Part shown: piece after piece, positions 24,841 through 59,949 of the stretch
Numbering within the stretch: position 1 is the first letter of the stretch
Layout: the number at the start of each line of letters is the position of its first letter
Origin: Narcine bancroftii
Lineage: Eukaryota
DNA: 64,000 nucleotides
Direction of reading: 5' to 3'
NCBI RefSeq assembly: GCF_036971445.1
Contig: NC_091473.1
Location: 210,924,001-210,988,000, forward strand
Notes under the pieces: generated by a model
Databases searched by the model: none
What the model saw: only the letters and a program-made list of their open reading frames with translations
What the model was told of the DNA's origin: nothing
Made by a program: the position numbers and the translations under genes

Positions 24841-24875
24841 GTTGGGGTCAGGAGTTATACGTTGAGCTTTTTCTT

Positions 24876-32100: not shown

Positions 32101-33528
32101 CCTTGCTCTTCCCTAAAACTACCTTAAAACTAACAGAATTATGATCACTAGACCCAATTGGATCTCCAACATTAATATCTGATACCTGACCTAGCTTGTT
32201 CCCTAACAGGAGATCCAGTATTACACAGTCCCGAGTCGGTTCTTCTACTGATTGAACACATTTAATGAACTCTAGCCCAACCAGGCCTCTAACTGTATGG
32301 GTAATTCAGACAGTCTGCATACCTTTGTGCCCCATGATTAACTCACCTGTTTCTGTCCGCAATGGGCCCACATTTGTCTTAACCAACATCCTTCTCTTAA
32401 CATATCTATAAAAACTCTTATAATAATTTTTTATGTTCCCTGCCAGCTTTCTCTCATAATCTTGTTTACCTTTCCTTATTAATCCTTTTGTCTTTTTCTG
32501 CAGAACTCTGAATTTCTCCTAATCATCAGGAATATTTTTTTTGTGGCTAATTTATATGCTGCTTCTTTGGATTTGATACTCTCACTGATTTTCCTTGTTA
32601 GCCATGGATGCTCTACCTTCCTTGATTTATTCTTTTTACAAACTGGGATGTATATCTATTATACTTGCTCCAATCTATCCTTAAACAATTGCCATTGCAT
32701 TTCTACTGTAGTCCTTTAAGTACCATATGCCAATCAATTTTAGCCAATTGACATCTCATACCATCAAAGTTGCCCCTCTTCAAGTTCAGAAACTTTGTAT
32801 CTGAATCAACTCTGTCAGATTCCATTATAATGAAGAATTCTACCATATTATGGTCACTCTTGCCCAAGGGGTTCTTCACTACAAGATTGTTAATTAACCC
32901 TTCTTCATTACTCAGTACCCAGTCTAGAATTGCTTGTTCCCACGTTGGTTCCTCGACTTGCTGATTTGGAAAACAATCCCGCATGCATTCTAAGAAATCC
33001 TCTTCCTCCAGTTTGGTTCACCCAGTCTACATGTAGATTAAAGTCACCCATTATAACTGCAGTCCCTTTGTTGCATCCATTACCAATTTCCTGTTCAATG
33101 CCATCCCTAACCTCACTGCTAGTGTAAGGTAGCGTCTTGTGCCTCTTTGTTTTTCGCAGCTCTACCTACATTGATATCACATCTTCCAAGCTAATGTCCT
33201 TCCTTTCTATCACATTCACCTCTTCCCTAACCAACAACGCTACTCCACCTCCTTTAATGTTCTGTCTATGCCTCCTGAATGTCAAGTAACCCTGAATGTT
33301 GAGCTCCCAGTCACAGCCCCCTTGTGATGCCAATTATATCATAGTCATTAATAGCTATCTCCATATTCAATTCATCGACTTTTTTCAAATGCTCCTTGCA
33401 TTCAGACCTTGCATTCAGACTTACTTTACCCATATTCTATCCCATTTGCCATTATGTAAATAAGTATCTCTTTTTGACTTTCGCCTTGGTCTTACCTGCC
33501 TGCTGCTATTGCCTTTCACCTTGCTATC
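29125..33528 (-). mobile_element. Older CR1 LINE ORF2 fragment (EN-RT), interrupted by a second CR1
   Basis: ORFs 32703..32984 (ILDWVLSN..LGKSDH), 29475..29771 (KSPGPDG..NYRPVSL), 29194..29496 (QHGF..YLDFSKAFD). Confidence 0.88.
29888..32305 (-). mobile_element. Younger CR1 LINE, 5'-truncated
   Basis: ORF 30428..31606 RT with GVPQG and FADD; ORF 29971..30378 C-terminus; 3' tail (ATGGTTAT)n. Confidence 0.92.
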
Positions 33529-34282
33529 TGTCCTGGTAAACTTGTACCTCTCATTTTGTTCATTTTATATTGGTCACAGTGTTTGAGCTATTGAAAGAAA
33601 ACAGAGACACACGCTGAGAGCACTTCAGTTTATACATATCTTTATTACTAAATCTAAAGCTGATTTCAAACTACAATATGCAAGCCCTTCCCAATTATAC
33701 TTATCAATGCCTGGACTGGTCCCAACTGCTGAAGCGAGGCAACGACCGCACATTTGTAGTAGGTTGTCGGGGCGCTGGTAGCAGCTTCTTCACCTCCCCC
33801 GACCAGGACATTGATTGGACTCTAGAAGTTCTTCTTCTTGCTGAGAGATGTTTCCACCCCTCAGAGAGTCTGTAACTTCAGCAGTGGGACCATGGCTTAT
33901 ATCACCCAAAAATTGCTGACTCAAGCACTTGCGCAAAAAAAAGATAACCGAGCACGCCTCGGCTTCTATCAAATACCACAACTTTCTAGCTTATCACTTT
34001 GAATACACTGGTTTACTTCGCTTCGAGGTCTCACCTGACAGTCTGCGACCAATAATCCCATCAATCTCAAATAGCAACCGGCTAACAAGCAGGAAGATTA
34101 AACGTTCTTGGTGCCAGATGTCTTTTTGTCAGATAACTGCATCTCTGGGCCCCATGGTGGAATTTAGCTTATGTCTGCTGCTTCTTACATTATTCTCAAA
34201 GTAGGTTACTGATACTCAGCCTTGCATAAGCAAAAGCATGGTCTAAATCCTCCATTACATTCCACCCCTTGGTGGCAGTCTG

Positions 34283-35797
34283 TCACTTACGAGACCTAAC
34301 AAGAATTCGAGTACAGAAGGAGCAAATATGAGAAACCAAAACTACAATAATTACAAAAATAAGCAATAATGCGAGCAACCAACGGAGAATAGTGTGGCCC
34401 AATCCTCCAAATGTACCAGTTAACCATGAAAAAGGATTCCAACCAAGGCTCAAACTATCCTTGTGGGCCACATTACCCAGACGCTGAAGCTCACAAATAG
34501 ATTTTGAAATATGCCGAACAATATCAGAAATATTAGTGGATACATCAGGAACATACGAGCAACATTCAGAACCGACAACGGAACATGTGCCACCCTGTTT
34601 TGCTAAAAGAAAATCCAGGGCCATACGATTCTGTAAAGCCACTGTCCTGACGGCAGAGAGTTCGTGATTAAGGTCATTAAGGCCCTGACTGACAGACAAA
34701 AGGGCAAAGGATGTCTCATTGGCAATAGAGCTCATTCGATCATATAATTTGTGAACCTCTTGGGAAACGTGAATAACGCCATAACCTGGGATCAAGGCAC
34801 CAAAGAAATTCTCGACACCTGAGAGGGCATGTCTATACCGAAGGACAGAGAACATACGCATAAGCGAGGGATGATCCTGTAAATGGGAAATATGATGCAG
34901 GTAGGGGATGGCGTATGCCAAATAGCAGCAAGCACCCCAAGTAAGGGCTAGCCATGTAAAGGCGCAAGACCCACAAACCCAATAGGTCCTGTTCATAGGG
35001 TGCTTGGAAATGAAAGGGGAATATGCCAGACAATCACTGTATGCCTGTCAGGGAACTTACAAAAGCAGACAGAGCCCTTCATATGTTGAGAAACAATAAA
35101 ATAGGGGGGTGTCATATAATGGGGGTAGGAATATGCCTTCCTTGAAATATATCCAAAATGTCACGTAGACTAAAGAACTGGGCCTCCTCAGGCACAGACT
35201 TATTACCATCCATGTGAACCCTGCCTTTGGAGGGATCAAAATATTTCCAGACAGCAACTTCCTTTTGGGTGAAAGGAATGGGGATCATGGGAATGCCTAT
35301 ACCGGTATGCAAAGGGCCTACAGTACAAATCCAACAATCAGAAACATTCAGTCGGTGAGCGTACGCATAAGAAGCATGGAGAATGGAATTGTTGGACAAA
35401 TCTGAAGGAATATTTGATGTGAAGCAGGCCACCAACTCCCCCACAGAACCGGAATCCTCCCACCACTTAGTGACAGGTGGTGCAGAGTTATCACAAGATA
35501 TAAAGCAGATACAAAAATGCCCGTCACAGAAGTAGGGGGCGACTACTTCAGTTGGTCCATCCACAAACAGAATATAGGAACCGTGACCGGCAATAACATA
35601 TATAAGCTGCACTTGAGGCGGGTGACTGAGGACTTCTTTGGTGTAATGCATTGGGCCGTGTCCCCCACGGGCAACTCCCTCGGAACCTCTTCGACATTAC
35701 AAATCCAATTGCTGGCACCAAAGCAGCTGTTAAGCCAGATCAGCAGGAGCGCAAGACGGAGGACCTGGAACAAAGAAACCTGACATATGTCACTCAC
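34283..35797 (-). pseudogene. env: Gamma-type env, frameshifted
   Basis: Signal peptide; SU CWIC; TM immunosuppressive domain LQNRMALDFLLAKQGGTC; CX6CC; hydrophobic anchor. Confidence 0.92.
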
Positions 35798-38700
35798 GAT
35801 GCCGTAAACATTCAGTATTTAAACAAACTAAACCATCCTGTCCCTCAATAGCTACCCACCAAGTGTTACCCTGGGCAGGTGTCACTATTTCCCCTTTTAA
35901 AGGAGGGCCACTACCTGGTGGTGCCACCCATACCTTTTGTCCAACATTCTCTGGCTCGGTAATGAGGGGGCAATGACTGTTTTTCCTCTGGAATAGGCTG
36001 TAGTTCAGAAGCGTGAAGAAGTTGGTGGAAAGGTCTACCTCCCTTTAAAGAGCGATGATTCAAATTTTTGACTGCCTGCTGCAGCACATGGCACCACCCC
36101 TTCAGGGTCCCCAGTGGTGTTAATAAACGAATCTGTTCCTTCAGTAAGCCGTTCATTCGTTCAACTAACCTGGCAGCCTGTGGGTAATAACGAATATGGT
36201 GGACCCATAAGATACTGTTGTCAGTTGCCCAATCACTGATTGCCTTCCCAGAGAAGTGCGAGCCATTATCAGACTGAATCTCCTCTGGTACATCATAACG
36301 AGAAATTAAATGGTTTAGTCCTTGAATAGTGCTAGCTTGGTCACCCGTCTTGGTGGGAAAAGCAAAAACCAGGCCCGAAAAGGTGTCAACCATTTCTAGG
36401 ACGTAACGTTTACCCATACAGTCTGGCATGGGGCCTATGTAATCAATTTGCCAAACCGTAGCTGTGCAAGCTCCCCATCTTATTCGGCCATGTGGACTAG
36501 GAGGAACGGTGCGGGATTTCATAAGCCGGCATGCTGGGCATGTACGCATGAACATGCGACTTCATCCTGATGGACAGGTAAGGCATGTGCACGGGCCCAC
36601 ATACCTGATCCCTTCTCCCCCAAATGGCCACTCTGTTCATGTGCCCATTGAGCCAGGGGGACGGTATCGGTGCGGCTGATAGTGGCAAGCTGATCTGCTA
36701 CTGCATTATGTTGTGCCATGTTCATCGTCGCATTGGTATGGGCGTCAACGTGATATACGGTTATCTCACGATGGTGGGAAGCATCCCACAACAGCTGCCA
36801 CAACTGTTTGCCCCATACTGGGCAGTCATGTATCAGCCAGTCGTTCTTTTGCCAATCAGGCATCCATACCACTAGTCCATTAGCCACAACCCAGGAATCA
36901 GTAAACAGTCGAAGAGGGTGATCATGGGGGTCTAGTGGTAAAGTGACCGCCTTCAACTCAGCATATTGGTTGGAGCCACCATCCACCTCCTCCAATAAAT
37001 TAGTTCCCGACCTGGGATGGTAAGCCACCGCCTTCCACTTCTGCTTTCCTTGCACCCAACGGCTGCTACCATCGGTAAACCAGTGTCCTCTTGTTCTGCT
37101 GGAGTGAGCGAATCATATGGTTTACCCCATGAACTGGTGAAAGGGGTAGGGGAGGGGGCAACGTCCTCATGATTAGATGGATTATCAGCCACCTGTTCGT
37201 GTATGCGGCCCACCCATTCAGGCCCTCCGGTCACGTTACTCTGAATATACCACTTCCATTTGACAATAGAAGATTGCTGAGCTCGCCCGATCTTTAGATT
37301 AGCATTATTAGCCAGGATCCAGTTCATTATTGGAAGTGCAGGTCACAACTGAACATCTGCATCACCTATCATTCTTTCTGTCTCCAGCAGGGCCCAGTAA
37401 CAACCCAGTAACTGTTGTTCAAAAGCAGAATAACGAGGGGCAGCCTCGAGCATGGTTCATGATCAGAATACCAGAGGGACTCGGTGGCCTTCTTGTTTCT
37501 GCCAGAGGCTCCAGGAGGCCACATAATCAGTAACGGAGACCTATAGTTCATAGGGGGTATTTGGGATGCGGGGAGAAATGGACAGGGCCTGAAGAATAGC
37601 CTGCTTGGCGGACTGGAATGCCCTTTCCTGATCTTTACCCCCATAAAAAGTCTGTTTTCTTTCGGGTAACCTTTTTTAGAGGACATAAAAGCAACGCCAA
37701 GTGTGGAATATGGCATTGCCAGTATCCCAATGACCCTAGGAAATGCTGGGTCTCCTTTTTACTAGTAGGAGTGGCTAAAACTGCGATCTTATTGCGAACT
37801 TTATTGGGAACCACCTGTTCTCCAGCAATTTAGGAATTCCTAAATTCCAAGGAAAATAGCTGTCTGGGACGGGCCCTGCACCTTGGCGGGGTTAATGGCC
37901 CACCCTCTTTGCATCAGACTATCTTGGACACTCTCCATACCTTCCTGTACCATCTCTTCTATGGCCCCTTGGATCATCACATCATCAATATAATGGTGAA
38001 TCAAGAGAGAAGGCAATACTGGCACCGCCTCCAAACCATGGGCAATTAGGCTGTGGCAAATCATGGGAGAGTGTACATTGCCCTGAGGGAGGCGGGTGAA
38101 GGTATACTGGCGCCTCTTCCAAGTAAAGGCAACTGATCCTGTGAGACCTCAGCTATAAGAATACTGAAGAAGGCATTAGCGAGATCAATGACAGCATACC
38201 ATGTTCCCGAGTTCCCAGTAGCAATGTTTTCAATAAGGGTAACAATGTCTGGAACTGCCGAAGCAAGTGGTGGGGCATGTTTGTTCAAAAAACGATAATC
38301 AACTGTAATTCTCCAGGAGCCATCCGGCTTCTGGACCAGCCAAACAGGTCTGTTAAAGGGCGGCGTTGCGGGCCTCACTATCCCTTCTTCTTGCAAAGCA
38401 TTGATGGTGGCAGTAATCTCTTCTTGCCCTCCAGGGAGGCGATATTGTGGAATGCATACTGGTTTTGGTGTGGGGGGGGGGGGTGGAGGCACCATCACAG
38501 GATCCTACTTAGCCCGACCCACCACTAGTCTTTTTGTAATAGTCCGAATTCCAAATTCAAATCCCCCTTGGCTAGTATTAAGGGCCGTACCGGCCAACAT
38601 ATTAATACCCAGGATACACTTGTTAGTAGCAGCCACCAGGGCATGTAACCATACAGGGGAAGGGCCATCACCCACCATGGCATGGACTTTTATTTCCTTC

Positions 38701-38924
38701 GCCTGGGTGATCGCTGCTCCCATCTCCTCTATTCGAAATGTTGGTCCAGTCCAGAGTTCAGAGTTACCAGGAATCACCGAATGCTCCACACCGGTATCGA
38801 CCAAAGTCAAATATTGGCGGTCATTACCCCCACCCCAATGGATTGTTAACGGTATGTAGGACCGCAGGTCCCCGTGTATCCGCCGTATCTCAATGGAGTA
38901 GACACAGGTATCCCGCCTACACCC
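35790..38924 (-). pseudogene. pol: Class III pro-pol, frameshifted
   Basis: ORFs 38505..38810 (PR DTG), 38061..38498 and 37840..38064 (RT), 36519..37327 (connection/RNase H), 35911..36555 (IN). Confidence 0.92.
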
Positions 38925-40802
38925 TCATGCCTTAGTAGGGTTCGAGGGCTTCCAGGACCACATGCTACTATTATCCATAAGAGCCTTTTTAACCATTTGT
39001 TGTATCTCTTCACGGGTAACTGGAGCAAGAGAAGCTGGCTCGATAGGAGCAGCAGTGGGAGCAGAAGGCACAGCTGGGCCAGGAGGACTTAACAGCTGGG
39101 GATTATGTTCCCCTGCTTTCCTCTTATAAAAGACCACGGTAGGTTTCCCATCAATATCACTTTTAGGTACGCCTAACTTTAACAAGGTTAGAAAAAGGTC
39201 CTTTCTTGTTGATCCTTTATTAGCAACAGTCCCTCTCCTTTCATCCTGCTTGTCTGATTTAACCTGGGTTGTACGTAAGTGGATTTTACCTCCCAACTCT
39301 AATTCTCAAAACCCAGATAAGGTGTGCACCGCCTCAGACACAGGGTGCACAATTAGCGGACTAGTTACAGACAGAACCAGTTCCTGTACAGTGGGTTAGG
39401 CGGAATGAACCAATCGGGTATGCATTCTGGCCATGAACATCTCTTCGTCAGGGCTCCCCCCATGTACCGACTGCCTCAAACGCCCTGCATACAAGGCAGA
39501 AGCCAGGGCCTGTTGACGAATTACTGCTATACCCTCCTCTGGGTTGCCCCAATTGTTCTGAAATTGTAAATCCCAATCTACTGATGATGGGTATACTCAT
39601 AGCAGGGCATCCCCTAGAGTGGCGAGTAAGTAATCCACCCCTCTCATTCTACCACATAGCTCAGCAGTGACCCAGATATCAGTAGTCAATGTTCCTAATC
39701 CCAACAATTCCTCAGGGATTAAATATACATGAGCCCCTCCTTGTTCCCAAACGCACAGGAGCCAGGCCACCGGAGTTTCTCCCGTCTTTTGCCTAAGTCG
39801 ATCTCCAATGGCGGCCATTCTTTTATAGAGAAGTCACGTATCGTTGACTGCTCCTGACCCATGTTCCCACTTTGGCCCACAGGCCCTCTACCCAGTGGAC
39901 GGGGGGAGGCCGAGGCCATCCTGTCGAGGGGGAGGCCATAGAGTATAAGCAGGGATTGAGTACCTTCCCCTGGGTCCACTTGGGGGTGCATCTTGTCTTG
40001 GGTAAACTTATACCTCTCATTTTGTTCATTTAGATTGGTCACAGTGTTTGAGCTACCGAAAGAAAATAGACACACACACCGAGAGCAGTTCAGTTTATAC
40101 AAATGTTTATTACTAATTCAAAAGCTGATTTCACATTACAATATGCAAGCCCTTCCCAACTATACTTATCAACGCTTGGACTGGTCCCAACTGCCGAAGC
40201 GAGGCAACGACTGCACACTTGTAGTAGGTTGTCAGGGCGCTGGTAGCAGCTTCTTCACCTCCCCCGACCGGGACGTTGCTCGGACTCTGGCTGTTCTTCC
40301 TTCTTGACAAGGGGTGTTCCCACCCCTCGGAAAGTCTAAACTTCAGCAGCAGGACCACAGGCTTATATACCCCAAAAACAATTAATCATGCGCCTACTCC
40401 TTCTAATATTTGTCAGTCAAAATCAAAACTGAACATTACATTCTACAATTTAGAAGATTAATTATTATGGAACCAGGATGTTATAACTTCCTGGTTTATC
40501 TCGTAGATACAAAGACTTATTAAAACTTCTCGAGCAAGACAGGTTGTGACCAATTCGTCAATTTCAGAGTGTTGCATTTGACAACTGCTTTCCCTGGGCC
40601 TCACAGTGGAATTCCATTTCAAAGTGTATCTTCAGATAAGTCCCCATGGCTGAGTTTAATTACATCTGCTAGTTCTGAAAGTAAGGTGACCTGCATGTGG
40701 ACCCAGTGTCATCAGTTCCACATAAGCAAAAAGCATCTGGGTACATGGTTTTAATCCTCCATTACATTCCACCCCTTGGTCACAATCTGTCATTTGCGAG
40801 GC

Positions 40803-41234
40803 CTAACCAGTATTCGAGTACAGAGGGAGCGAAAAAAGAGAAATCAAAACAACAATTACAAAGATAAGCAATGACGCGAGCAACCAACGGAGGATAGTGT
40901 GGCCCACTCCCCCAAATGTAGCAGTTAGCCATGAGAAAGGATTCCAACCAAGGCTCAAATTATCCTTGTTGGCCACAATACCCAGATACTGGAGCTCACG
41001 AACAGATTTTGAAACATGCTGAACAATAACAAATTTATATAAGCTGCACTTGAGGCTGGTGACTGAGGACTTCCTTGGTGTAATGCATCGGACCGTGTTT
41101 CCCATGGGGAACTCCCTTGGAACGTCCTCGACATTACAAATCCAATTGCTGGCATCAAAGCAGCTGTTAAGCCAGATCACCAGGAGTGTAAAATGGAGAA
41201 CCTGGAACAAAGAAGCCTGACACATGTCACTCAC
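40803..41234 (-). CDS. env: Mini-env ORF (signal peptide plus SU start fused in frame to TM anchor)
   Basis: N-part matches 35543..35797 and C-part matches the end of 34283..34996; expression unknown. Confidence 0.6.
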   Translation of the reverse strand: MSDMCQASLFQVLHFTLLVIWLNSCFDASNWICNVEDVPREFPMGNTVRCITPRKSSVTSLKCSLYKFVIVQHVSKSVRELQYLGIVANKDNLSLGWNPFSWLTATFGGVGHTILRWLLASLLIFVIVVLISLFSLPLYSNTG

Positions 41235-43662
41235 GATACCATAAGCGTTCAGTGTTTAAACAGACTAAATCATCCTGTCCCTCAATAGCTACCCACCGAG
41301 TGTTACCCTGGGCAGGTGTCACTATTTCCCCTTTTACAGGAGGGCCACTACCTGGTGGTGCCACCCATACCTTTTGTCCAACATTCTCTAGTTCGGGAAT
41401 GGGGGGCAATGACTGTTTTTCCTCTGGAATAGGCTGTAATTCAGGAGCGTGAAGAAGTCGGTGGAAAGGTGTACCTCCTTTTAAAGGGCGATGATTCAAA
41501 TTGTCGACTGCCTGCTGCAGCACATGGCACCATCCCTTCTGGGTCCCCAGTGATGTTAACAAACGAATTTGTTCCTTCAGTAAGCCGTTCATTTGTTCAA
41601 CTAACCCGGCAGCCTGCGGGTAATAAGGAATATGGTGGACCCATAAAATACCGTTGTCATTTGCCCAATCACAGATTGCTTTCCCGGAGAAGTGCGAGCC
41701 ATTATCAGAGTGAATCTCCTCTGGAACATCATAACGATAAATCAAATGGTTTAGTCCTTGGATAGTGCTAGCTTGGTCAGCTGTCTTGGTGGGAAAAGTA
41801 AAAACCAGGCCCGAAAAGGTGTCAACCATTACTAGGACGTAATATTTACCCATACAGTCTAGCATGGGGCCTATGTAATCAATTTGCCAGACCGCAGCTG
41901 AGCGAACACCCCGTTTTATTTGGCCATGCGGACCAGGTGGAACGGTATGGAACTTCACAAGCTGACATTCTAGGCATGTACGTACGACCATGCGGACATC
42001 ATCCTGATGGACGGATAAAGCATGTGTACGGGACCACATAGCTGATCCCTTCTCCCCCAAATGACCACTCTGTTCATGTGCCCATCGAGCCAGGGGGACG
42101 GTATCAGCACAGCTGATAGTGGCAAGCTGATCTGCTACTGCATTATGTTGAGCCATGTTAGTCGCCATATTGGTATGGGCATCAACGTGATAAACGGTTA
42201 TCTCACGATGGTGGGAAGCATCCCACAACAGCTGCCACAACTCTTTGCCCCATACTGGGCGGTCATGTATCATCCAGTTGTTCTTTTGCAAATCAGGCAT
42301 CCATACCACAAGTCCATTAGCCAAAGCCCAGGAATCAGTAAACAGGCGAAGAGGGTGATCATGGGGATCTAGTGGTAAAGTGACTGCCTTCAACTCATCA
42401 TACTGACTGGAGCCACCATCCCCCTCCTCCGATAAGTGAGTTCCTGACCTGGTATGGTAAGCCACCTGTTCGTGTACGCGGCCCACCCCTTCAGGCCCTC
42501 TGGTCGCATGACTCTGAATATACCACTTCCATTTAACAATAGAAGACTGCTGAGCCCGCCCGATCTTTAGATTAGCATCATTAGCCATGACCCAATTCAT
42601 TATAGGAAGTGCAGGTCGCAATTGAACATCTGCATCACCTGTCATTCTTTCAGTCTCGAGCAGGGCCCAGTAACAGGCTAGTAACTGTTGTTCAAAAGCA
42701 GAATAACGAGCGGCAGCCTCGGGCATGGTATGTGACCAGAATCCCAGTGGGACTCGGCGACCCTCTTGTTTCTGCCAGAGGCTCCAGGAGGCCACATCAT
42801 CAATATAATGGTGAATTGAGAGGGAAGGCGATACTGGAAGGTGGGTGAAGTTATACTGGCGCCCCTTCCAGGTAAAGGCGAACTGATCCTGTGAGTCCTC
42901 AGCTATAAGAATACTGAAGAAGGCGTTAGCGAGATCAATGACAGCATACCATGTTCCTGAGTTCCCAGTAGCAATGTTTTCAATAAGGGTGACAATGTCC
43001 GGAACTGCTGAAGCAAGTGGTGGGGCATGTTTGTTCAAAAAACGATAATCAACTGTCATTCTCCAGGAGCCGTCCGGCTTCTGGACCGGCCAAACGGGGC
43101 TATTAAAGGGCGATGTTACGGGCCTCACTACCCCTTCTTCTTGCAGAGCATCGATGGTGGCAGTAATCTCTTCCTGCCCCCCAGGGAGACGATATTGTGG
43201 AATGCACACTGGTTTCATGGGGGCTGGCACCATCACAGGATCCCACTTAGCCTGACCCACTACTAGTTTTTTTGTAATAGTTCGAATTCCAAATTCAAAT
43301 CCCCCTTGGCTAGTATTAAGGGCCATACCGGCCAACATATTAATACCCAGGATACACTCGTCAGTAGCAGCCACCAGGGCATGTAACCAGACAGGGGAAG
43401 GGCTATCACCCACCATGGCACAGACTTTTATTTCCTTTGCCAGGGTGACCGCACCTCCCAACCCCTCTATTCGAAAGGCCGGTCCAGTCCAGAGGTCGGG
43501 ATTACCAGGAATCACCGAGCGCTCTGCACCGGTGTCGACCAAAGCCAAGTATTGGCGATCATTACCCCCACCCCAGTGGATTGTTAACGGTATGTAGGGC
43601 CGTGGATCCCCGTGTGTGCGCCGTGTCTCGATGGAGTAGACACGGGAATCCTGCCCACACCT
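41227..43662 (-). CDS. pol: Open pro-pol frame: PR, deleted RT, deleted RNase H, intact IN
   Basis: ORF 41227..43548 (773 aa) stays open upstream to the gag TGA; DTG, YIDD, HHCC and D-D-E motifs present. Confidence 0.8.
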   Translation of the reverse strand, partial: RCGQDSRVYSIETRRTHGDPRPYIPLTIHWGGGNDRQYLALVDTGAERSVIPGNPDLWTGPAFRIEGLGGAVTLAKEIKVCAMVGDSPSPVWLHALVAATDECILGINMLAGMALNTSQGGFEFGIRTITKKLVVGQAKWDPVMVPAPMKPVCIPQYRLPGGQEEITATIDALQEEGVVRPVTSPFNSPVWPVQKPDGSWRMTVDYRFLNKHAPPLASAVPDIVTLIENIATGNSGTWYAVIDLANAFFSILIAEDSQDQFAFTWKGRQYNFTHLPVSPSLSIHHYIDDVASWSLWQKQEGRRVPLGFWSHTMPEAAARYSAFEQQLLACYWALLETERMTGDADVQLRPALPIMNWVMANDANLKIGRAQQSSIVKWKWYIQSHATRGPEGVGRVHEQVAYHTRSGTHLSEEGDGGSSQYDELKAVTLPLDPHDHPLRLFTDSWALANGLVVWMPDLQKNNWMIHDRPVWGKELWQLLWDASHHREITVYHVDAHTNMATNMAQHNAVADQLATISCADTVPLARWAHEQSGHLGEKGSAMWSRTHALSVHQDDVRMVVRTCLECQLVKFHTVPPGPHGQIKRGVRSAAVWQIDYIGPMLDCMGKYYVLVMVDTFSGLVFTFPTKTADQASTIQGLNHLIYRYDVPEEIHSDNGSHFSGKAICDWANDNGILWVHHIPYYPQAAGLVEQMNGLLKEQIRLLTSLGTQKGWCHVLQQAVDNLNHRPLKGGTPFHRLLHAPELQPIPEEKQSLPPIPELENVGQKVWVAPPGSGPPVKGEIVTPAQGNTRWVAIEGQDDLVCLNTERLWYRE

Positions 43663-44773
43663 TCAGGCTTCAGAAGGGTTCGGGGGCTTCCAGGACCACA
43701 TGCTATTGTTATCTTTAAGAGCCTGTTTAACCCATTGTTTTACCTCATCATGAGTAACTGGAGCAGGAGAAGCCAGCTCGATAGAAGCAGCAGTGGGAGC
43801 AGAAAGCACAGCTGGGCCAGGAGGACTCAGCAGCTGGGGATGATGTTCCCCTGCTTTTTGCCTAAATCGATCTCCAATGGCAGCCAGCTCTTTTGCAGAG
43901 AAATCACGGATCATTGACTCCTTCTGACCCCTGTTCCCACTTCGGCTCACAGGGTCCTCCACCCAGTCTAGGGGAGGAGGTGGAGGCCATCCAACAGAGG
44001 GAGTAGGCAGGGGTTTGGGTATTTTCCCCTGGGTCCACATGGGAAACCGGGGTATCTATCCCTTCCATCTCTACCCTTACATCATCCCCCCTTCTGTCTG
44101 TTTGGGAAATCTGCTGCCTTATAGGGCGGGCGTGAACAGCAGATGGAGAGGGTAGTATGTTAGACACATGCTGAGGAGTATCTGCATTATTACCATTGTC
44201 ATTCCAGATATTCCCATCCCAATCCTCAATTACATCAGGATCGTCACCATTCCTTATCATGGCATGAATACGATATGGATCGGGTTCTACTCCATGCCTT
44301 TCCTTATCTGCACAGAGCTGCTGCTGGAGTTTAATATTACGGCAAATCATTTGGACATGCTTATCTTCCCATTCTTTGGCTCTGTCCTGACTGGTGCGAA
44401 CAATCTCGCTCATCATGGAACAGCATTGTCGCAGGACTTGTAGCTCCTCCTCTAATTGCTTTCTTTTGCACTGAGATTCTACTTCTCTTTGAATTAATTC
44501 TGCTTCATGCTGAACGGAGTGGCGTAATGCTGTGGCCAGCAACCAAAAACCATTCGTCAGCGTTCCCTTTTTATCAGGAAATTTACTTTGTCGAAGGAGA
44601 GTGGCAACCTGCTCTCCCAGAGATGCACTTGATGAGTCTAACTTCTCATCCCAACTAATGGGTGGTCCCAACAAAGACAGGATATTGGCCAACATGCCAA
44701 ACCCATCGTCTTTGGAAGTCCATCCAGGAATCAAGAACTGCTCAGGGCTCACCTGTTTCTTTCGGCGAAACAT
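43663..44773 (-). pseudogene. gag: Class III gag, capsid deleted, one frameshift
   Basis: ATG 44773 MFRRKKQ; ORFs 43904..44839 and 43663..44040; homologous to 45577-46280 and 38925-39993. Confidence 0.8.
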
Positions 44774-44783
44774 CTTGAGACCA

Positions 44784-44801
44784 ATCCTGCTCGCAGCGCC
44801 A
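44784..44801 (-). promoter_or_regulatory. tRNA-Ser primer binding site
   Basis: TGGCGCTGCGAGCAGGAT, near-complement of the vertebrate tRNA-Ser(CGA/TGA) 3' end as recalled; also at 46291-46308. Confidence 0.8.
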
Positions 44802-46379
44802 ATTGTCTTGGGTAAACTTATACCTCTCATTTTGTTCATTTAGATTGGTCACAGTGTTTGAGCTACCGAAAGAAAATAGACACACACACCGAGAGCAGTT
44901 CAGTTTATACAAATGTTTATTACTAATTCAAAAGCTGATTTCACACTACAATATGCAAGCCCTTCCCAACTATACTTATCAACGCTTGGACTGGTCCCAA
45001 CTGCCGAAGCGAGGCAACGACTGCACACTTGTAGTAGGTTGTCAGGGCGCTGGTAGCAGCTTCTCCACCTCCCCCGACCGGGACGTTGCTCGGACTCTGG
45101 CTGTTCTTCCTTCTTGACAAGGGGTGTTCCCACCCCTCGGAAAGTCTAAACTTCAGCAGCAGGACCACAGGCTTATATACCCCAAAAACAATTAATCATG
45201 CGCCTACTCCTTCTAATATTTGTCAGTCAAAATCAAAACTGAACATTACATTCTACAATTTAGAAGATTAATTATTATGGAACCAGGATGTTATAACTTC
45301 CTGGTTTATCTCGTAGATACAAAGACTTATTAAAACTTCTCGAGCAAGACAGGTTGTGACCAATTCGTCAATTTCAGAGTGTTGCATTTGACAACTGCTT
45401 TCCCTGGGCCTCACAGTGGAATTCCATTTCAAAGTGTATCTTCAGATAAGTCCCCATGGCTGAGTTTAATTACATCTGCTAGTTCTGAAAGTAAGGTGAC
45501 CTGCATGTGGACCCAGTGTCGTCAGTTCCACATAAGCAAAAAGCATCTGGGTACATGGTTTTAATCCTCCATTACACATCTATCCTTTCAATCTCTACCA
45601 TTACATCACCCCCTTCTCCGTCTCAGTCTGTTTGGGAAGTCCGCTGCCTTTCAGGGCAGTTGTGAACAGTGGGTGGAGAGGGGAGTACGTCAGCCACATG
45701 CCAAGGGGTATCTGCATTATTACCATTGTTATCATACCACATATTCCCGTCCCAATCATCAATTACATGAGGATCATCGACATTCCTTATCATGGCACGA
45801 ATACGATGTGGATCGGGTTCTACCCCTTTCTTTTCCTTAGATGCACAGAGCTGCTGCCAGAGTTCAATATTATGGCAGATCATTTGGACATGCTTATCCT
45901 CCCATTCTTTGGCTCAGTCCTAACTGGCGCGACCAATCTCGCTCATCATGGAACAGCATTGTCACATGGCTTCTATCTCCTCCTCTAGTTGCTCTCTCTT
46001 GTGCTGGGATTTTACTTCTCACTGAACTAATTCTGCTTCACACTGAATGGTGCAGCGTAAGGCTGTGGCCAGCAGCCAAAAACCGTCCCTCAGCATCCCC
46101 TTTTTATCAGGAAATTTACTCTCTTGAAGGAGAGTGGCAACCCGCTCTTCCAGAGGTGCACTTGATGGATCTAACCTCTCATCCTAACTAATGGGTGGTC
46201 CCAACAAACCCATCATCTTTGGAAGTCCATCCCGGAATCAAGAACTGCTCAGCGCTCACCTCTTTCTTTCGGCAAAACATCTTGAGACCAACCCTGCTCG
46301 CAGCGCCAATTGTCTTGGGTAAACTTGTACCTCTCACTCTGTTCATTTTAGATTGGTCACAGTGTTTGAGCTATTGAAT

Positions 46380-48330
46380 GAATAATCCCTAACAGCAGGA
46401 TGCATCCTCCTACAACTGTTTTCCCTTTTGCATTAGCTAACTGCATAAAAACATCTTGTATATATCGTCTACATTCAATGAATGCATGTTCATCAAAGTC
46501 AAATATTCAGAATATTTTTTACAATTTGTCATCACATACCTTCCCACTTTATCAATCATTATATCCAGTACTTCAACTTGTCAACTCTTATTTATTAATA
46601 TTGCCACTCCTCTAGCTTTAGAATTACTAGCTCTTGCTTTAGAATTACTAGCTCTACCCTTTCTACCAAATCTCTCTTTAATTTCTTATGTTCAATTTCT
46701 GTCAAATGAGTTTCTTGAAATTTTTTTTCATATAACTCAATAATATTTTTCTCTTTATTGGATTCTGAATTCAATTAATTTCAATACTAATAAATGGCAA
46801 TTTCTCCACCATTAGACATCAGAATTCAAACCTATATCTATCCAGCATCCCCCTCCACCTCACCATCAACCCAACCCTCCTTGTATAATATATTACAATT
46901 ATATAAAGTCCAAGCTAAAAATGAAAAGGGGAAAAGATAAGAAAATGGGAAAAAAGATAAGAAAGAACCCCAGAGGCACATAATGTTAAAACTTCTCTAT
47001 TCCCCTGATCAATACGGGATGTAAAGCATGTCACATTGGTGCCTATGACGTAGTGGTCAGCATCACATACCTCACTAACTGACTCAAAACACTATACCAT
47101 CCCTTACTATAAACTTTTTAATACATTAATCTTACCCAGTATAATAGATCACACACAATACAGGTTAAACCTTCCTCCCCCTTTGAACTCTCTCAAAACT
47201 CAATATATTTTCAGTTACAGCAAAATTTCTCAATTATGAAATTAATTCAGGTATTGACAACCATCTGCTGATCTTTTAGCAGGCAGTGAATCAACATATT
47301 CCTTTGCTTCATTAGGCTCAGTAAAAAAATCTATTCTTCCCTCCCAGGATGAATACCTTCAAAACATCTGGATATCTCAAAACAAAGGCATAGCCTTTTT
47401 TCCACAATTCATCTTTAACTGGATTAAACTCTTTACTCTTTTTCAAGAAATCAGGACTTGTATCTGGATAAAAGAAAATCTTCTTTCCATTATTAATCTT
47501 TAGCTTGTTTCACTGCCAGCTCCAATATCTTCTCTCTTACTTCATATCGAAGGAATCTGACAAATATCGGACGGGACTTTGGTCAGGCTGAGGTTTAGGT
47601 CTCAATGCCCTATGGGCTCATTCAATCTCCAAATCACCTTGAAATTCAGCCTGACCCAAAGATTCCGGTATCCAGCATTGCAGAAATCTTTTCAAGTCTT
47701 GACCCTTGTCCCCTTCTTTAAGTCTAACAACCTTGATGTTATTCCATCTACTAAAGTTTTCCAAAATATCAATTTTTTGCATTAATTGGTCATGCTTAAC
47801 AGCTGCCTCACTTGTACTTTCTTAATTGGACCTTTAATATTTTGAATCTCTAACACATTCCCTTTAATTTTTCCATCCAGTATTTCAAATCTAATGCCCA
47901 CCTGTTGCATTAATCTTTCCATCTTATCACCATAGTTCCTTACTTCACCAGTTAACACTTCCATAGATTGTCGAAAAAGTCTAACATTTGCTTTAATTCA
48001 CCAGAAGATAAAGACATTTTTGTACCCTTTTCTGTTTTTTTTTTCTTGATTGTAGTTCATTCTTGTTCTTTCCTTTGCTTTTCCAGATCTTCTTCTTGAT
48101 CACTGAAGCTGTGAGTGTCTGGAATCTTTTTTTAAAATTTCCTCCTTTTTTTGTGCTCTTGCACATGCACGACTCTTCACGCATGGGCAGAGTCACTTCT
48201 TCACCTGATGATGACGGCCATTGTCGGGGAGACCTTGTGCAGCTATTTCCAAAGTCTCCCCAGCTTCTGGCCACTCTTCTTTGGATATTATTTTGTGAAC
48301 AGTCCTAGGAGGCCTCTCTTCATTTTCTTG
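46380..48330 (-). mobile_element. L1-clade LINE 5' part (ORF1 plus endonuclease start), decayed
   Basis: RPIFVRFLRYEVREKIL, KIFFYPD, LRYPDVLK (ORF1); KARGVAILINK..DKVGRYV (EN). Confidence 0.75.
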
Positions 48331-54505: not shown

Positions 54506-55152
54506 ATGACAGAGACTGCAGCGGCCGAAGCGGCTCCTCCTGCCACTCCCGGCGCCCAAACCAAGGCTCCCAAGAAGAAGAAGGCGGCTGCCCGGCCCAA
54601 GCCACCAGGTCCTAAGCTGGGCGATCAGATCGACAGGATGTGGCGGATTGCCGCGAGCGCGGGGGCATGTCCTACTTCGCCATAAAGAAGGCTCTGTCCG
54701 CAGGCGGCGTCGATGTGCACAAGTCCGCCTCGCACATCAAGACGAGCATCAAGAGGAAATTGGACAGCGGCCTCCTGGTTCAATGCAAAGGCTCGGGCTT
54801 GTCGGGTCACTTCAAGGCCGGGAAGAAAGAAAGGACAGTGACATTGGCAAAGAAAGCGAAGAAACCAGCGGCCACAGCTTCGAAGTCCAGGAAGTCGGTG
54901 GCAAAGAAATCTTCGGCCAAAAGACCAGTCACCAAGAAATCGCCCTCCAAGAAACCCGCGGCCAAGAAATCTCCCAGCAAGAAACACGGCGCCAAGAAAC
55001 CAGCGGCTAAAAACACGGCGGCCAAGAAGGCGGCCCCGAAGAAATTCAAGAGCCCCCCGAAAGCCAAAGTCATGAAGGTGAAGGCGACCAAAAAGGTTGT
55101 AAAATCCAGGGCCCGGCCGAAATCTAAACCCAAGGCAGCGGCCAAGAAGTGA
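54506..55152 (+). pseudogene. H1: Histone H1 with a single 1-bp frameshift near 54639 (young pseudogene or sequence error)
   Basis: MTETAAAEAAPP..; globular domain in ORF 54640..55152; K-rich tail; H1 box AAACACA at 54358-54364; intact stem-loop. Confidence 0.85.
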
Positions 55153-55188
55153 AAGAAAAACCTCAACGTGTAAACTCCTGACCCCAAC

Positions 55189-55204
55189 GGCTCTTCTCAG
55201 AGCC
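55189..55204 (+). terminator. Histone 3' stem-loop (H1)
   Basis: GGCTCTTCTCAGAGCC with downstream GAAGAGCTG. Confidence 0.93.
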
Positions 55205-56163
55205 ACTCACATCCCTCAGTGAAGAGCTGCACCCCAGTCACATCACTCCTGTCCCGGCACCGCGTTCACATTCCAGCGGGGAATCATTCACGCGAAGCCC
55301 CGGTAACTCCACCACATTCTCTGCACCCCCACCCCGGTCCCCAGTAACCAAACAAAACCCCGAGAACGGGATGTTCTGGGACCAGCCTCACTCGGTCTGG
55401 GGATGTGATCGGCCCTATATCCGTTCATCAACAATTCCTTCAGGCAGATTCTGGGGGAGAGAATGAGATGGGGACAAAGGGGGAGAATTCTGCCTCAGAG
55501 TCATCAGGGAGGTTTCTCATAGCCGGGTTAAGGTGATTATTCATCGATGAAGGGAGGTGTGGGGACAGGAGACAGGCTCCGGGGGTGAAACGGAAGGAGA
55601 CGGGATCTAGGAGGCACGTAGTGAAGATCCAGGGAATAGATTTGAGATGAAGATGAGGAAATGCCTTGTCCCTGAGGGAAGTGAATCCGCGGAATTCTCT
55701 GCCCAGTGAAGCTGCCTCATTAAATGCTTCCAAGACTCAGAGATTACTGAAAAGGAGAGGATTAAGGGTTACGGGAAATGGTGCCGAGTCCCAGTGCAGA
55801 TCAAGTCTCTTATTGAAAGCGGAGCAGTATCGATACGCCGGATTCCCATCTCCTGCTCCTATTCCTAATGTACCATTGATATCACCGCTGGATATAATTG
55901 TAACGGCGCTTATTTAAAGCTTTCGTATTTCAGGAAATCGGAAAAAATGTAACCCCGTGTGTGTTGTTCGCGGTCGCTGTTTCTGTTCTGCTAATAACGT
56001 TTGGAAATTAGCGATTTCCGGGGCCGGGGCGGAAGATGAGAGGCCGCTCTCTGCCCTGTCTGTCACTCTGACTCTGTCTCCTCCCCTCCCCTTCACTGCG
56101 TGTCCTCAGCCAGGTCGGGGCGCTGTGTATAAAAGGGGTCGGCAGCAGTGGGGTTGTCATTGA

Positions 56164-56499
<336 letters not shown>

Positions 56500-56533
56500 A
56501 GAACTCCGTCCTTTCTCCACACAACAAAACAAA

Positions 56534-56549
56534 GGCTCTTCTAAGAGCC
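56534..56549 (+). terminator. Histone 3' stem-loop (H4)
   Basis: GGCTCTTCTAAGAGCC. Confidence 0.95.
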
Positions 56550-57257
56550 GCCCAACGCCTCACAGAGGGAGCTACTGCAAAGGGCACGAATTGGGATAAA
56601 AATGTTGTCTAGAATCCATCCACAATAATTCATGATCAGGGCTTGTTTGACGAGGAAAAGAGATAATGTCGACATTCATGGTGGATTTAAAGAATGAAGG
56701 GTGATCTGCAGCCGGTTTCCCTCGAGGCGATCTCCGCTCTCTGACCCACACAATTTATATTGCGGTGTCGCTAAAACGGTCTGGAATCTCCCTCCCGGGA
56801 ATAGTCACTTTTCTCCACCTCCGCCAGAGCTGAATTCCATCCGCTTCAGCAGTGGTTCAGTCCATCCGCAGCCCAATTTAAGATACACTGGTTGAATGAG
56901 AAAATTCACCGAAATTTAAAATGATCTGAGTTAGAATCAGGGAGAACTTTTTTCCATCAAACCATTCTCCAAAATTTGCGGGTGATTTGAAAATAAACTA
57001 AAGCCAATCCCACTGCAGCCAGTGTTTCTCTCTCTCTGGTTCTCAGTCAATGTACATTTGCGCTGCAGATCTGAAACGGCCCTGTGAGTCATATGATGAT
57101 GGAGCCAATCACAGCCCTGGAACACGATGATTGCAATCTCTGCTCCAGCCATTCAGAGCGCTCGGGGCGGATCTTCAACTATTTACAAGTCGGAGCCTGA
57201 GCCAGTTTCATCATTCCAGCCCTGTGTCTCAGATTGTATTTGTACTGTTAAAGCGGA

Positions 57258-57646
<389 letters not shown>

Positions 57647-58383
57647 ACCTGGCCTCGGGACTAAGTACCAAAAAGGCTCTTTTCAGGGCCACAATCCTGA
57701 CAATGGAAAGGGCTGTGCCGTTCTAGACCCATATTTGTTTCTGTCTGCGGGGCATCTATTAAAATTGCAGTCTTCACTGCTCCTCAGCAGAATTTACTCT
57801 CCTGGTCGGTTTGGGGCATTCATTTGCAAACCCAAATGATCCTCATTCAGGTAGTCCCAAAACTAGGCAATCCCTCCACACCGTCACCTCTTAATGCTGT
57901 GATAATTGTCTGCGTGTGTTAAATGTAACTGATGTCTTCGGTTGTGACCTACACACAAGTTCAAACACGGATCGTCACTGATAAAAAAATACAGAATTGG
58001 CTACACAGCCCTGACTTACTGCAGTGGCTGGACTCTGCGTTCTCCCTCCTGTCAGGTGGTTCCGGAATCAGACAACATCCTGCACACACGTGCACATGTC
58101 CATCCGCATGTTTTTCGCACCGATTTATCCCGTTGCTTGTTTAATTGACCTGGAGAATGTAGTTCAGCTAAGTAGACGTCACCTGTGTCGGGATATGAAC
58201 TGGGAAAATTCTTTAATCTGTTCCGGTCCCGAGAATTCTCCGTTCAATTCAGCACAAAAACTTGCCCAAATACATATATGAAAAGTTTTACGTATAACTC
58301 GTTACCCTGCGCTCTCCCCAGCCCGGTCAGCCCTTCCAGATATTGTGAGTGGCTCTGAGTCATTGGGTTCACTTCATGCCGCT

Positions 58384-58741
58384 TCACTTATTAGCTCCGC
58401 CGGTTTTCTTGGGCAACAGCACAGCCTGGATGCATGGTCACCCCTCCCAGTAGATTGTTGAGCTCCTCGTCGTTGCGGACAGCCAGCTGCACGTGTCTGG
58501 GGATGATGCGAGTCTTCTTGTTGTCCCGTGCCACGTTACCGGCCAGCTCGAGGATTTCAGCCATCAGGTACTCGAGCACAGCAGCCAGATAGACCAAGGC
58601 TCCTGCGCCCACCCGCTCAGCATAGTTACCTTTTCTCAGGATCCTGTGAACACGGCCCATAGGGAACTGCAGTCCAGCCCGGGACGAGCGAGACTTGGCC
58701 TTGGACAGAGTTTTATCGCCAGATTTCCCTCATCCACTCAT
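58384..58741 (-). pseudogene. H2A: Histone H2A pseudogene (arm B)
   Basis: ATG AGT GGA TGA (CGA to TGA); C-terminal deletion; 5' arm of stem-loop deleted. Confidence 0.95.
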
Positions 58742-59584
58742 CTCCACAATTTCACCAACTCCTTCACTGCCAATAAGAACCTAAGGTTGCAGTCGCCGTT
58801 CTTGTACCTTTTGGAGGAATGGAAAGGGAGCCTGATGATGGGATCTTCAGTGCTCACTGTCATTCGTTGAGCGAGGTCCCCATTCCGAGAGCAACCAGTG
58901 AACAGGCTGCAGCACGTTGAACGCGGAGAATAATGGCCCGTTTCTTCAATCGCCGAAATGTGAAAAGGCCGTAAAATTTCATCTTTGCAGAGTCTGAAAA
59001 CAAGTTGTTGTGAATCTAATTGTTGGCGTGATTTCTACTCATCAGTGATCACTCAATCACGACACATTTACATCGTGTGTATTCATGTCCCGAGAATCGC
59101 TGTGAACAGAGTTACCGATTTATTTCAAGAAGTAACAGATGCGGGAAAGGAAACGATTCTCAGCAGTAAATGTTCCTCCGGGAAAAAGACCGTGAACTGA
59201 CTGATCTCGGGTGGTGATGGCGTTCGGGGCAGTAACATCATGCGGGGGTTCAGTTCATAGAATGCACACGAAATAGCAATTGAACAGTGAAAACTCTTGT
59301 ATTTTGCCCACATTAATCGCTCCCAATTGTCAAAATGTTTAATGACTGTGATAAATGAGAATATAACATTTCTGTGGCCCTTTAGGGACAGGAATTCAAC
59401 TGGGACACCAGGAACATGCAGCACTGAAAGCGCAAACTTGGATCAACAGAAACTGCATGAAAATAAAGGCGTGAAGCAGAAATTATTATTGGAAACTTTG
59501 GTACAACACTTTCAGTGAGACTGTGAGTGGCTCTTACAAACACCGTTGGGTTTTCTGCCTGTCTGGTCGATACTCTATGAAGGT

Positions 59585-59949
59585 TTATTTGGAGCTGGTG
59601 TACTTGGTCACGGCATTCATCCCTTCCAACACGACGTGCTTGGCCAACTCTACGGGTAGCAGCAGGCGCACAGCGGTCTGGATCTCCCAGAAGCTGATAG
59701 TTGACCTCTTGTTGTAATAGGCCAGGCGGGAAGCCTCACCCACGATGCACTCAAAAATATTGTTAACTAACAAGGTCATGATGCTCATGGCCTTGCAGAA
59801 GATGCCAGTGTCAGGATGAACCTGCTTCATCACCTTGCAGATGTAGATGGAGTAACTCTCCTTCCTCACCCTCCTGCACTTCTTTCCTGCTGGTTTGTCA
59901 AGGCTTTCTTGGTGCTCTTCTTGGGAGCTGGTTTCTGCTGCTCAGGCAT
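59585..59949 (-). pseudogene. H2B: Histone H2B pseudogene (arm B)
   Basis: 365 bp versus 375 bp (1-bp and 9-bp deletions); many CpG transitions; stem-loop mutated to GGTGTTTGTAAGAGCC. Confidence 0.95.

Follow-up and report, generated by a model that had tools for sequence, protein, structure and literature searches.

A young provirus inside an older relative

The window, that is, the whole 64-kb stretch analysed of DNA from the electric ray Narcine bancroftii, contains a young endogenous retrovirus surrounded by an older, decayed relative (Table 1). Its paired LTRs, of 773 nt each, differ at 3 sites, an exact 5-nt TSD flanks it, and with a primer-binding site (PBS) and a purine-rich tract (PPT) also present it is an integrated LTR provirus; the LTR comparison bears out the initial annotation, which had reported about 3 differences in 773 nt and a perfect TSD. 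The primer-binding site is presumably that for tRNA-Ser, and ARAGORN found no tRNA in the window with which it could be compared.

Table 1. Positions of the proviral features in the window
Feature	Position	Strand	Basis or remark
TSD, upstream copy	45577..45581	.	exact 5-nt repeat
5' LTR, 773 nt, TG...CA	44804..45576	-	3 differences from 3' LTR
Primer-binding site	44784..44801	-	site seen in sequence
gag remnant without capsid: N-terminal and coiled-coil part, PPPP stretch; TGA end in frame with pol	43663..44773	-	alignments
Sixth deletion, short (<20 nt), out of frame, in window copy; premature stop at 43904	44004..44008	-	comparison with family proteins and contigs
Junction D1: in-frame loss of 669 gag nt, comprising capsid and the conserved C-terminal part	43846..43858	-	older-copy and stingray alignments
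pol frame, 811 codons: PR, RT/connection/RNase H remnants, IN with C-terminal domain; no dUTPase	41227..43662	-	alignments
Junction D2: 22 RT codons lost, including QG motif region	42836..42840	-	gap of 21-23 aa against 21/21 outside proteins
Junction D3: about 150 codons lost (RT palm/thumb and connection) directly after YIDD	42793..42798	-	5-nt microhomology
Junction D4: loss of about 55 codons, among them the first catalytic Asp motif of RNase H	42460..42467	-	7-nt microhomology
pol codon 749: sense in window copy, stop in many other copies	41416..41418	-	proteins and contigs
Intron GT..AG, 3551 nt, joining gag codon 7 to env acceptor, phase 0	41202..44752	-	contig joints in X1, X7
Junction D5: in-frame loss of about 1.07 kb from env (most SU, fusion peptide, HR1, ISD, CX6CC)	41026..41036	-	alignment
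Mini-env exon, 132 codons: hydrophobic leader, SU stub, most of TM C-helix, anchor, short tail	40803..41201	-	sequence and alignment
Purine-rich tract adjoining 3' LTR	40767..40785	-	seen in sequence
3' LTR, 773 nt	39994..40766	-	LTR comparison
TSD, downstream copy	39989..39993	.	exact 5-nt repeat
Older relative, 5' part: LTR remnant, PBS, gag start	45577..46382	-	alignment
Older relative, 3' part: gag end, pol, env, 3' LTR; undeleted but decayed	33528..39993	-	89.7% identity over aligned bases

Measured against the older copy, the reference for all gap lengths, the young copy has five large gaps, of 669 nt at ~43857, 66 at ~42839, 458 at ~42797, 164 at ~42466 and ~1067 at ~41033. Three of the raw lengths, 458, 164 and 1067, are not divisible by 3, a consequence of frame breaks in the older copy itself: with outside Pol queries that copy shifts frame within the stretches that the young copy has lost, and the pol matches in the young copy all lie in one frame (3/3 queries). 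The flanks of D1 share a frame as judged by a full-length stingray relative. The initial claim of five in-frame deletions therefore holds for the flanks of all five, but a sixth deletion, out of frame and within gag, is also present. Exact microhomology in the older copy amounts to 5 nt at the RT-connection junction (D3) and 7 nt at the RNase H junction (D4), and to merely 1-2 nt at D2. Splicing was rejected as the origin of the five deletions, their ends not being GT..AG (D1, D2 and D5 were tested solely in the aligner's register).

The gag TGA (43665-43663) is in frame with pol, whose frame measures 811 codons from stop to stop; its first ATG, at codon 83, lies beyond the protease DTG at codons 43-45, so that pol needs read-through of that TGA. 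The "773-aa pol ORF" of the initial annotation was counted from a TTG at codon 39 of this frame. Read-through is a prediction, and the hairpin 3' of the TGA has z=-1.86, with 12/200 shuffles equally good. The gag frameshift placed near 43900-44040 exists, and its cause is the sixth deletion; it is not the family state, since contigs of runs X3, X7 and X9 and the family proteins P0130 and P0133 lack that deletion, and contigs have loose ends at 44007/44008 in X3, X9 and X7 (record 21). Translation of the window copy ends at 43904, upstream of 4/5 junctions, so that its pol is unreachable by translation. The window copy is thus a broken member of its family.

Copies, relatives and class of the family

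Junctions D2-D4 occur in every one of the 14 clustered proteins of Narcine bancroftii, which represent 13 gene models and 10 contigs, annotated family proteins being open by ascertainment, and D1 is carried by both proteins that span the gag junction (P0130, P0133). The initial reading thus holds on this point: neither the pol junctions (14/14) nor the gag junction (2/2) are unique to the window copy. An assembly artefact or a one-off decayed copy, to which the private frameshift alone would point, has a negligible probability with the same junctions in 13 gene models on 10 contigs. The carriers of D2-D4 form two sublineages, 13-23 aa apart in 522. The deletion set is a trait of a widespread, recently active, defective family, not of a single copy. 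The internal depth of X3 contigs is about 5,000-7,400 at several sites, against 9-24 for contigs with rare joints, and at most suggests hundreds of copies, contig depth being no measure of copy number or expression.

For the intact helper whose search the initial annotation proposed, the candidates are undeleted relatives of about 93-94% identity. They appear as contig loose ends, at 43846/43854 for D1 (X3, X9) and, for D2, in X9 and in X7 (record 18, with 8 differences in 122). No intact Narcine pol was found among the best 120 of 269 matches listed or in a second protein search, and a protein search returned no intact gag or gag-pol from Narcine above 545 aa, which is weak evidence. The element also occurs in one run each of organisms B and C (X9, X10), with values of 0.00 in two sister runs per sample; horizontal transfer was rejected in favour of probable contamination. 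The literature searched, which excluded subscription journals and Repbase/Dfam, contained no description of this Narcine family, nor was it described in literature on in-frame internal ERV deletions or on an anchored C-peptide from an ERV.

Judged from its best structure matches, the family would belong to class III (spuma-related): the top 13, among solved retroviral structures, are foamy IN or RT. A betaretrovirus-like pol was not found, and the likeness to IAP discussed below is functional only. The gag has a 49% match to its stingray counterpart, in whose cluster the members bear the name Fv1-like, and no zinc-knuckle Pfam match marks a Cys-His box on P0002, P0003 or P0133. A dUTPase after IN is absent from both the young and the older copy, where alignment to dUTPase-bearing proteins leaves a gap, and the env has a gamma-type TM (TLV_coat match, CX6CC, syncytin-1 match). 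With gag and pol in one frame split by a TGA, these features make the deleted family probably ERV-S-like.

Open frames and what may have kept them

RT, RNase H and capsid of the deleted family are dead. PR and IN retain their motifs (DTG; HHCC and D,D(35)E), and the initial annotation had proposed that the element supplies both. It is nevertheless quite improbable that the family acts as a source of working PR and IN, whether in cis or for a helper. PR has lost 0/30 conserved sites, a small number of sites, but IN has lost 5/89 in all copies, against 0/83 in the dead RT remnant and 4/172 in dead domains (P=0.28, in the direction opposite to IN retention); variable sites are 23/210 in IN against 38/394 (P=0.67), and dN/dS against the older copy is 0.54 for IN and 0.46 for PR compared with 0.22 for dead RT. 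Furthermore, a nonsense change at pol codon 749, 63 codons before the pol end and common to many copies, removes the IN C-terminal domain. IN is not preferentially conserved in the deleted family, and for IN the supply proposal is largely refuted.

A phase-0 splice joint to the mini-env occurs in 2/2 probable RNA runs (X1, X7) and 0/2 probable DNA runs (X3, X9); no run is recorded as RNA, and the status of X1 and X7 is assumed, a GT..AG joint unique to them fitting RNA. The IN-to-env splice modelled in 12/14 gene models is not among the contig joints observed and may be a prediction artefact. No stop interrupts the env stub between the acceptor and the end of the TM remnant, the part retained aligns with the syncytin-1 C-helix, and a protein search found no protein relatives at near length. 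Its tail frame differs from that of the older copy near 40831, a difference that appears family-wide, two listed contigs covering the tail matching the window without a gap. The depth of the X1 contig is 1,149 on the env side against about 88, a weak indication for which 3' bias could equally account.

D5 is outside the reach of genomic-RNA translation. Its being in frame, together with the splice and the predicted hydrophobic leader, anchor and C-helix, would follow if the mini-Env were functional, for example by interfering with related envelopes, with the gag-pol frames partly incidental. This is very improbable: one junction would be in frame by chance with a probability of about 0.4, env stubs have a dN/dS of 0.73-0.76 against the older copy, the residues directly after CX6CC are lost, the tail frame has changed, and the protein is a predicted one.

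How surprising the open gag-pol frame is depends on the null. The initial figure of (1/3)^5 is too low, as 39-49% of 5-6-mer repeat pairs are in phase in five window ORFs (longer words give higher but noisy shares), and a microhomology-aware null raises the expectation for five in-frame junctions to about 0.014. As products of in-phase shares, the four gag-pol junctions have a probability of about 0.03 under that null and 0.012 under 1/3. The statistical case consists of four events with P about 0.03, in an element that was chosen for looking in frame; D1, moreover, is in frame almost by construction, because the two ends between which it lies code for one and the same peptide in the undeleted relatives seen as loose ends.

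These shares also lend weight to an account without selection on frame, in which repeat-mediated deletions were biased to one codon phase and one well-expressed short master spread by virtue of its LTR or its size. Among rare deletions in low-depth contigs 5/6 coding ones are in frame, an excess that favours mutational bias if those deletions never amplified. Of the changes private to the window copy 17 are nonsynonymous and 5 synonymous, which matches the neutral expectation (a share of 0.77), and the U3 of the young copy is unlike that of the older copy around it. Against it, the microhomology-aware expectation for five junctions is still small, D2 has hardly any microhomology in the older copy, and the replacement of the gag stop by Ser in 3/14 family proteins (P0130, P0133, P0135; seen in gene models, not DNA) is not predicted. 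We consider this account, the main rival to the one that we favour, somewhat unlikely.

The reading that we favour, at a probability of about 0.52, is that of a class III (ERV-S-like) family which depends on helpers and in which selection maintains an open frame in cis, comparable to mouse IAP 1Δ1. A gag-TGA-pol element would have lost one piece after another, mostly between short repeats, and its descendants would have reached many loci with capsid, RT and, probably, IN supplied by undeleted relatives. The feature retained would be the open gag-pol frame rather than enzyme function, variants whose RNA was translated through gag and, by read-through, the shortened pol presumably being copied more often. 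Two cis routes can be offered tentatively. Escape from nonsense-mediated decay (NMD) is possible though doubtful; in the available text of PMC5360307, low read-through inhibits NMD, less well with a longer downstream frame. Still more doubtful, and argued by analogy, nascent truncated Gag or Gag-Pol could bring its own RNA to helper particles. The IN-truncating stop near the pol end is tolerated, as expected if frame length, not IN activity, matters, and the copies that have lost the gag stop could have taken a further step in the same direction. Selection for translatability, first suggested in the initial annotation, thus gains from the gag stop lost in three models and the tolerated late stop, and is weakened by statistics less extreme than stated and by an env junction that it leaves unexplained. 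A more elaborate version, an ERV analogue of a defective-interfering RNA that shed ~2.4 kb over several rounds under ribosome-transit selection alone, then abolished the gag stop in one sublineage and added a spliced, anchored TM C-helix able to interfere with the helper envelope, is improbable.

In the literature found, the idea that non-autonomous ERVs must stay translatable rested on one mouse subfamily with one deletion. The Narcine family is a natural experiment in a cartilaginous fish, with several independent in-frame junctions at many loci; as its natural copies differ in frameshift, gag stop and IN tail, a copy census could separate frame selection from deletion bias without engineering. 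The in-frame loss of five gene pieces hints that ribosome readability, not working enzymes, helps such passengers spread, and the family carries a warning for annotation: a long ERV ORF in which PR and IN motifs are intact is no proof of working enzymes.

Comparison with known systems

According to the available parts of PMC8278194, XtERV-S of Xenopus tropicalis is intact and has a dUTPase after IN, and ERV-S is without dUTPase and combines a class III pol with a class I TM. The ray family resembles both, as far as those parts describe them, in having gag and pol in one frame split by a TGA, YIDD, an ERV-L-type gag, CWIC and CX6CC in env (in the older ray copy) and a Ser primer site, which for the ray we have assumed (PMC8278194). 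Unlike XtERV-S as it is portrayed there, the ray lineage, full-length stingray relatives included, is without dUTPase; also unlike XtERV-S, the ray env leader comes from gag codons 1-7, and the spliced RNA therefore retains the PBS. The closest undeleted whole-gag relative found is a full-length ERV family of Hemitrygon akajei (P0139-P0151), with about 55% pol identity, the same gag start and IN C-terminus and a gag annotated as Fv1-like; belonging to another species, it is not the helper of the Narcine family.

Mouse IAP 1Δ1 (IΔ1) is internally deleted, needs Gag and Pol in trans, has an open gag-pol frame whose fusion product is reported to help in cis, and outnumbers its helper among new insertions, in the text available from PMC6466679 and PMC7411935. 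The Narcine family shares with it internal deletions and an open frame across many copies. IAP, however, is class II with one 1.9-kb deletion, whereas the ray family is class III with four gag-pol and one env in-frame deletions; the window copy retains the read-through stop, some other copies appear to lose the TGA, and a spliced mini-env RNA is probably made.

Poliovirus offers a parallel to the open-frame requirement of defective-interfering RNAs. For coronavirus and arterivirus defective-interfering RNAs that need an open frame, translation rather than the protein favours propagation, according to titles in the reference list of PMC4395149. Unlike the ray family, these RNAs are cytoplasmic and do not integrate. 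ETn, VL30 and MaLR elements are largely non-coding and, unlike the ray family, have no long retained gag-pol frame. They amplify with helper proteins, as stated in the available portion of PMC6466679.

Structure and reading frame of the young copy

The window holds a young ERV inserted in the gag gene of an older, decayed relative (hereafter the young and old copies). Its LTRs differ at 3 of 773 nt (0.39%) and its 5-nt TSD matches exactly, as the initial annotation had read. The 3' part of the old copy is 89.7% identical to the young one (3,271 aligned bases), and relative to the old copy the young one has five large gaps, D1 to D5, totalling 2,424 nt; three of the five raw gap lengths are not divisible by three because the old copy has frame breaks of its own. 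The young and old LTRs are alike over the first ~20 nt and again towards the 3' end, with 88% identity across 380 nt (40379-40743 versus 33913-34236); most of U3 is unalignable, having been replaced between the two lineages. The sequence upstream of the old element's cut 5' LTR is LINE-like in appearance, judged by eye.

Features of the window (coordinates are window positions)
Feature	Position	Strand	Remarks
Young ERV, whole element	39994-45576	-	paired LTRs and TSD
Older relative	33528-39993 and 45577-46382		two parts flanking the insert
D1	gag		669-nt gap versus old copy
D2	RT		66-nt gap versus old copy
D3	RT to connection		458-nt gap versus old copy
D4	RNase H		164-nt gap versus old copy
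D5	env		about 1067-nt gap versus old copy
Old element 5' LTR and adjoining sequence	46312-46400		LTR shortened to about 71 nt; 65/71 agree with its 3' LTR end
LTR fragment of young family	1-121	opposite to young copy	84-88% identity
Third, distant ERV pol remnant	3409-6010		28-33% identity to stingray relative
Long inverted old-repeat pair	16399-25090 and 54907-63485		80-88% identity across about 8.7 kb

The pol matches of the young copy with three outside Pol proteins lie in a single frame; those of the old copy shift frame within the D3 and D4 stretches. With a full-length stingray relative as guide, both flanks of D1 share one frame, and the env stub is stop-free from its acceptor to its end. 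Together these observations indicate that all five junctions are in frame, as had been proposed. The pol frame spans 811 codons from stop to stop, the 773-aa ORF first described for it starting at a TTG. Because the first ATG comes after the protease DTG, pol would require read-through of the in-frame gag TGA, and a hairpin 3' of this TGA (z=-1.86; 12/200 shuffles equally stable) is suggestive only as a read-through signal. The frameshift noticed in gag near 43900-44040 is real: near 44004-44008 lies a sixth deletion, short and out of frame. It stops translation of the window copy at 43904, upstream of D1-D4. The env tail of the young family departs in frame from that of the old copy at a T run (40831), where the two listed spanning contigs both agree with the window sequence.

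A family with shared junctions

The top protein match is a Narcine bancroftii model (97%), and the window is probably from this electric ray or a near relative of it. The cluster of this model has 14 proteins, taken to represent 13 gene models from 10 contigs, P0005 and P0127 being isoforms. The identical junctions that the initial annotation had suggested looking for do occur in other copies: D2, D3 and D4 are common to 14/14 proteins, and D1 is present in both of the two that span it, each with open gag. For D5, neither a bridging record nor a loose end (a contig part leaving the window match) was found among the records listed. In 3/14 proteins Ser replaces the gag stop without a missing residue. 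Over 522 shared positions, residue differences number 1-4 within one group, 1-20 within another and 13-23 between the two, and 14-27 between the window copy and all others. Because groups with common junctions differ in this way, the family must have kept diversifying after the deletions arose.

Four of the 15 listed sequencing runs, all seen as contigs, were compared with 40767-45640, and figures are from among the rows listed. Loose ends at 44007/44008 (runs X3, X9) and record 21 of X7 represent copies without the window gag frameshift. Others at 43846/43854 (X3, X9) and 42839 (X9; X7 record 18) continue into sequence resembling the old copy's D1 and D2 interiors, respectively, and undeleted relatives therefore exist; of the intact helper that the initial annotation had suggested looking for, none was found as a protein among the matches listed. 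In each of the four runs the LTR bins far exceed the internal bins in depth, and long loose ends of X1 run into other sequence, which suggests numerous solo LTRs as well as LTR-driven transcripts. Inside the LTR (44862-44987), X7 has four short skips at high contig depth, two of them with CT..AC ends on the + strand. An X3 contig connecting the LTR end (45576) to the IN region (42034) is probably another family insertion into a family copy, like that in the window. The element also appears under two other organism labels (X9, X10), in one run each and in none of their sister runs, a probable contamination.

Loss of function and proposed selection for an open frame

D1 removed the capsid together with the conserved C-terminal region of Gag. 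D2 took away 22 residues (a gap of 21-23 residues with 21/21 outside proteins) and D3 about 150 residues directly after YIDD; with D4 RNase H lost its first catalytic motif. RT and RNase H of the family can no longer function. PR and IN had been described as kept intact, and their motifs are still there in the young copy; for IN, function is not kept. Sites were scored if at least 70% of up to 21 outside proteins conserve them and the old copy retains them; of these, the family has lost 5/89 in IN (all fixed), 0/83 in RT, 1/53 in connection, 3/36 in RNase H and 0/30 in PR, the comparison of IN with the dead domains (P=0.28) running contrary to IN being kept. Values of dN/dS against the old copy, which blend pre-deletion selection with old-copy decay, are 0.54 for IN, 0.46 for PR, 0.22 for RT, 0.26 for connection and 0.36 for RNase H, with gag and env at 0.61-0.77. 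A variant at 41418, found in all four runs and in the sole X1 contig over the site, turns pol codon 749 into a stop, where the family protein P0005 terminates. It deletes the IN C-terminal domain, which is retained in full-length stingray relatives and required by retroviral IN. IN function thus appears not to be preserved, and these losses make it improbable that the family supplies PR or IN, for which the surviving motifs and the unchanged PR sites would speak.

Of the variants, 40 are shown (32 coding; 75 further ones are not among them). Variants close to fixation relative to the window copy comprise 17 nonsynonymous and 5 synonymous changes (neutral share 0.77), and the shared ones 5 and 5 (P=0.054), with the codon-749 stop among the former five. 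Because the 22 changes exceed the LTR-divergence expectation, the window copy may form a separate sublineage; alternatively, its LTRs may have been homogenised.

Two probable RNA runs, X1 and X7, show a 3551-nt joint with GT..AG ends that the probable DNA runs X3 and X9 lack. This splice links gag codon 7 with the acceptor at 41201 in phase 0, and its predicted product of about 139 residues has a hydrophobic leader, a short SU stub, most of the TM C-helix (assigned by alignment to syncytin-1 through the old copy) and a membrane anchor, in that order. In 12/14 gene models the same acceptor is apparently paired with a donor within IN, as inferred from the C-terminal peptide; that splice was not seen among the listed joints of the four runs. 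A role for this mini-Env seems improbable.

The chance of five in-frame junctions, previously put at (1/3)^5, or 0.004, was too low. Identical word pairs in five window ORFs are in phase in 35-36% (2-mers), 39-44% (5-mers) and 37-68% (7-mers) of cases, and junction-suited shares give about 0.014. Only four junctions count for genomic-RNA translation (about 0.03), because D5 comes after the pol stop, beyond the reach of ribosomes except on spliced RNA; both values are affected by the element having been chosen because it looked in frame. Six of the 13 joints listed in the four runs are further deletions within coding sequence, after exclusion of the splice, of four LTR joints, and of two single ones that remove the gag start and reflect the old copy, respectively. 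Their net size is divisible by three in five cases (78, 36, 270, 846, 42; the exception is 1121), with P 0.018 under 1/3 and 0.05-0.07 under 0.42-0.45; adding the window copy's own break gives 5/7, with P 0.045 and 0.12-0.15. These rare joints, with short flanking sides and low contig depth, cut both ways: if never amplified, they would point to mutational bias. Frame-biased deletion with a founder effect we regard as unlikely though far from negligible.

The family is helper-dependent, its in-frame junctions fixed, its capsid, RT and RNase H dead and its IN without special conservation. Helper dependence, one part of the original proposal of a streamlined element selected for translatability, stands; as to the selection, we would put at about 0.52 the probability that the open gag-pol frame is selected in cis, through NMD inhibition or a cis-acting truncated Gag or Gag-Pol, taken jointly. 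According to PMC5360307, NMD can be inhibited by low read-through, the level required growing with the distance from stop to mRNA end. By this route a short, in-frame pol would be favoured, a stop close to the pol end tolerated and loss of the gag stop rewarded. Alternatively, truncated Gag or Gag-Pol could be cis-acting, a mode of help reported for IAP 1Δ1 (PMC6466679, PMC7411935).

Relation to known elements

The closest solved structures are foamy-virus IN and RT. The lineage is ERV-S-like, class III, because of its foamy-like IN/RT, read-through TGA, Fv1-like gag and gamma-type TM, without dUTPase; for this assignment it was compared with XtERV-S by its published description (PMC8278194). 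In the stingray Hemitrygon akajei there is a young ERV-S-like family of full-length elements (P0139-P0151); several of its gag models bear the name Fv1-like, and its gag-pol models apparently cross the stop by a predicted intron. Neither the ray family nor any ERV with several in-frame junctions was found described in the open-access literature searched. In its way of working the family would be similar to IAP 1Δ1, yet it is not an IAP.
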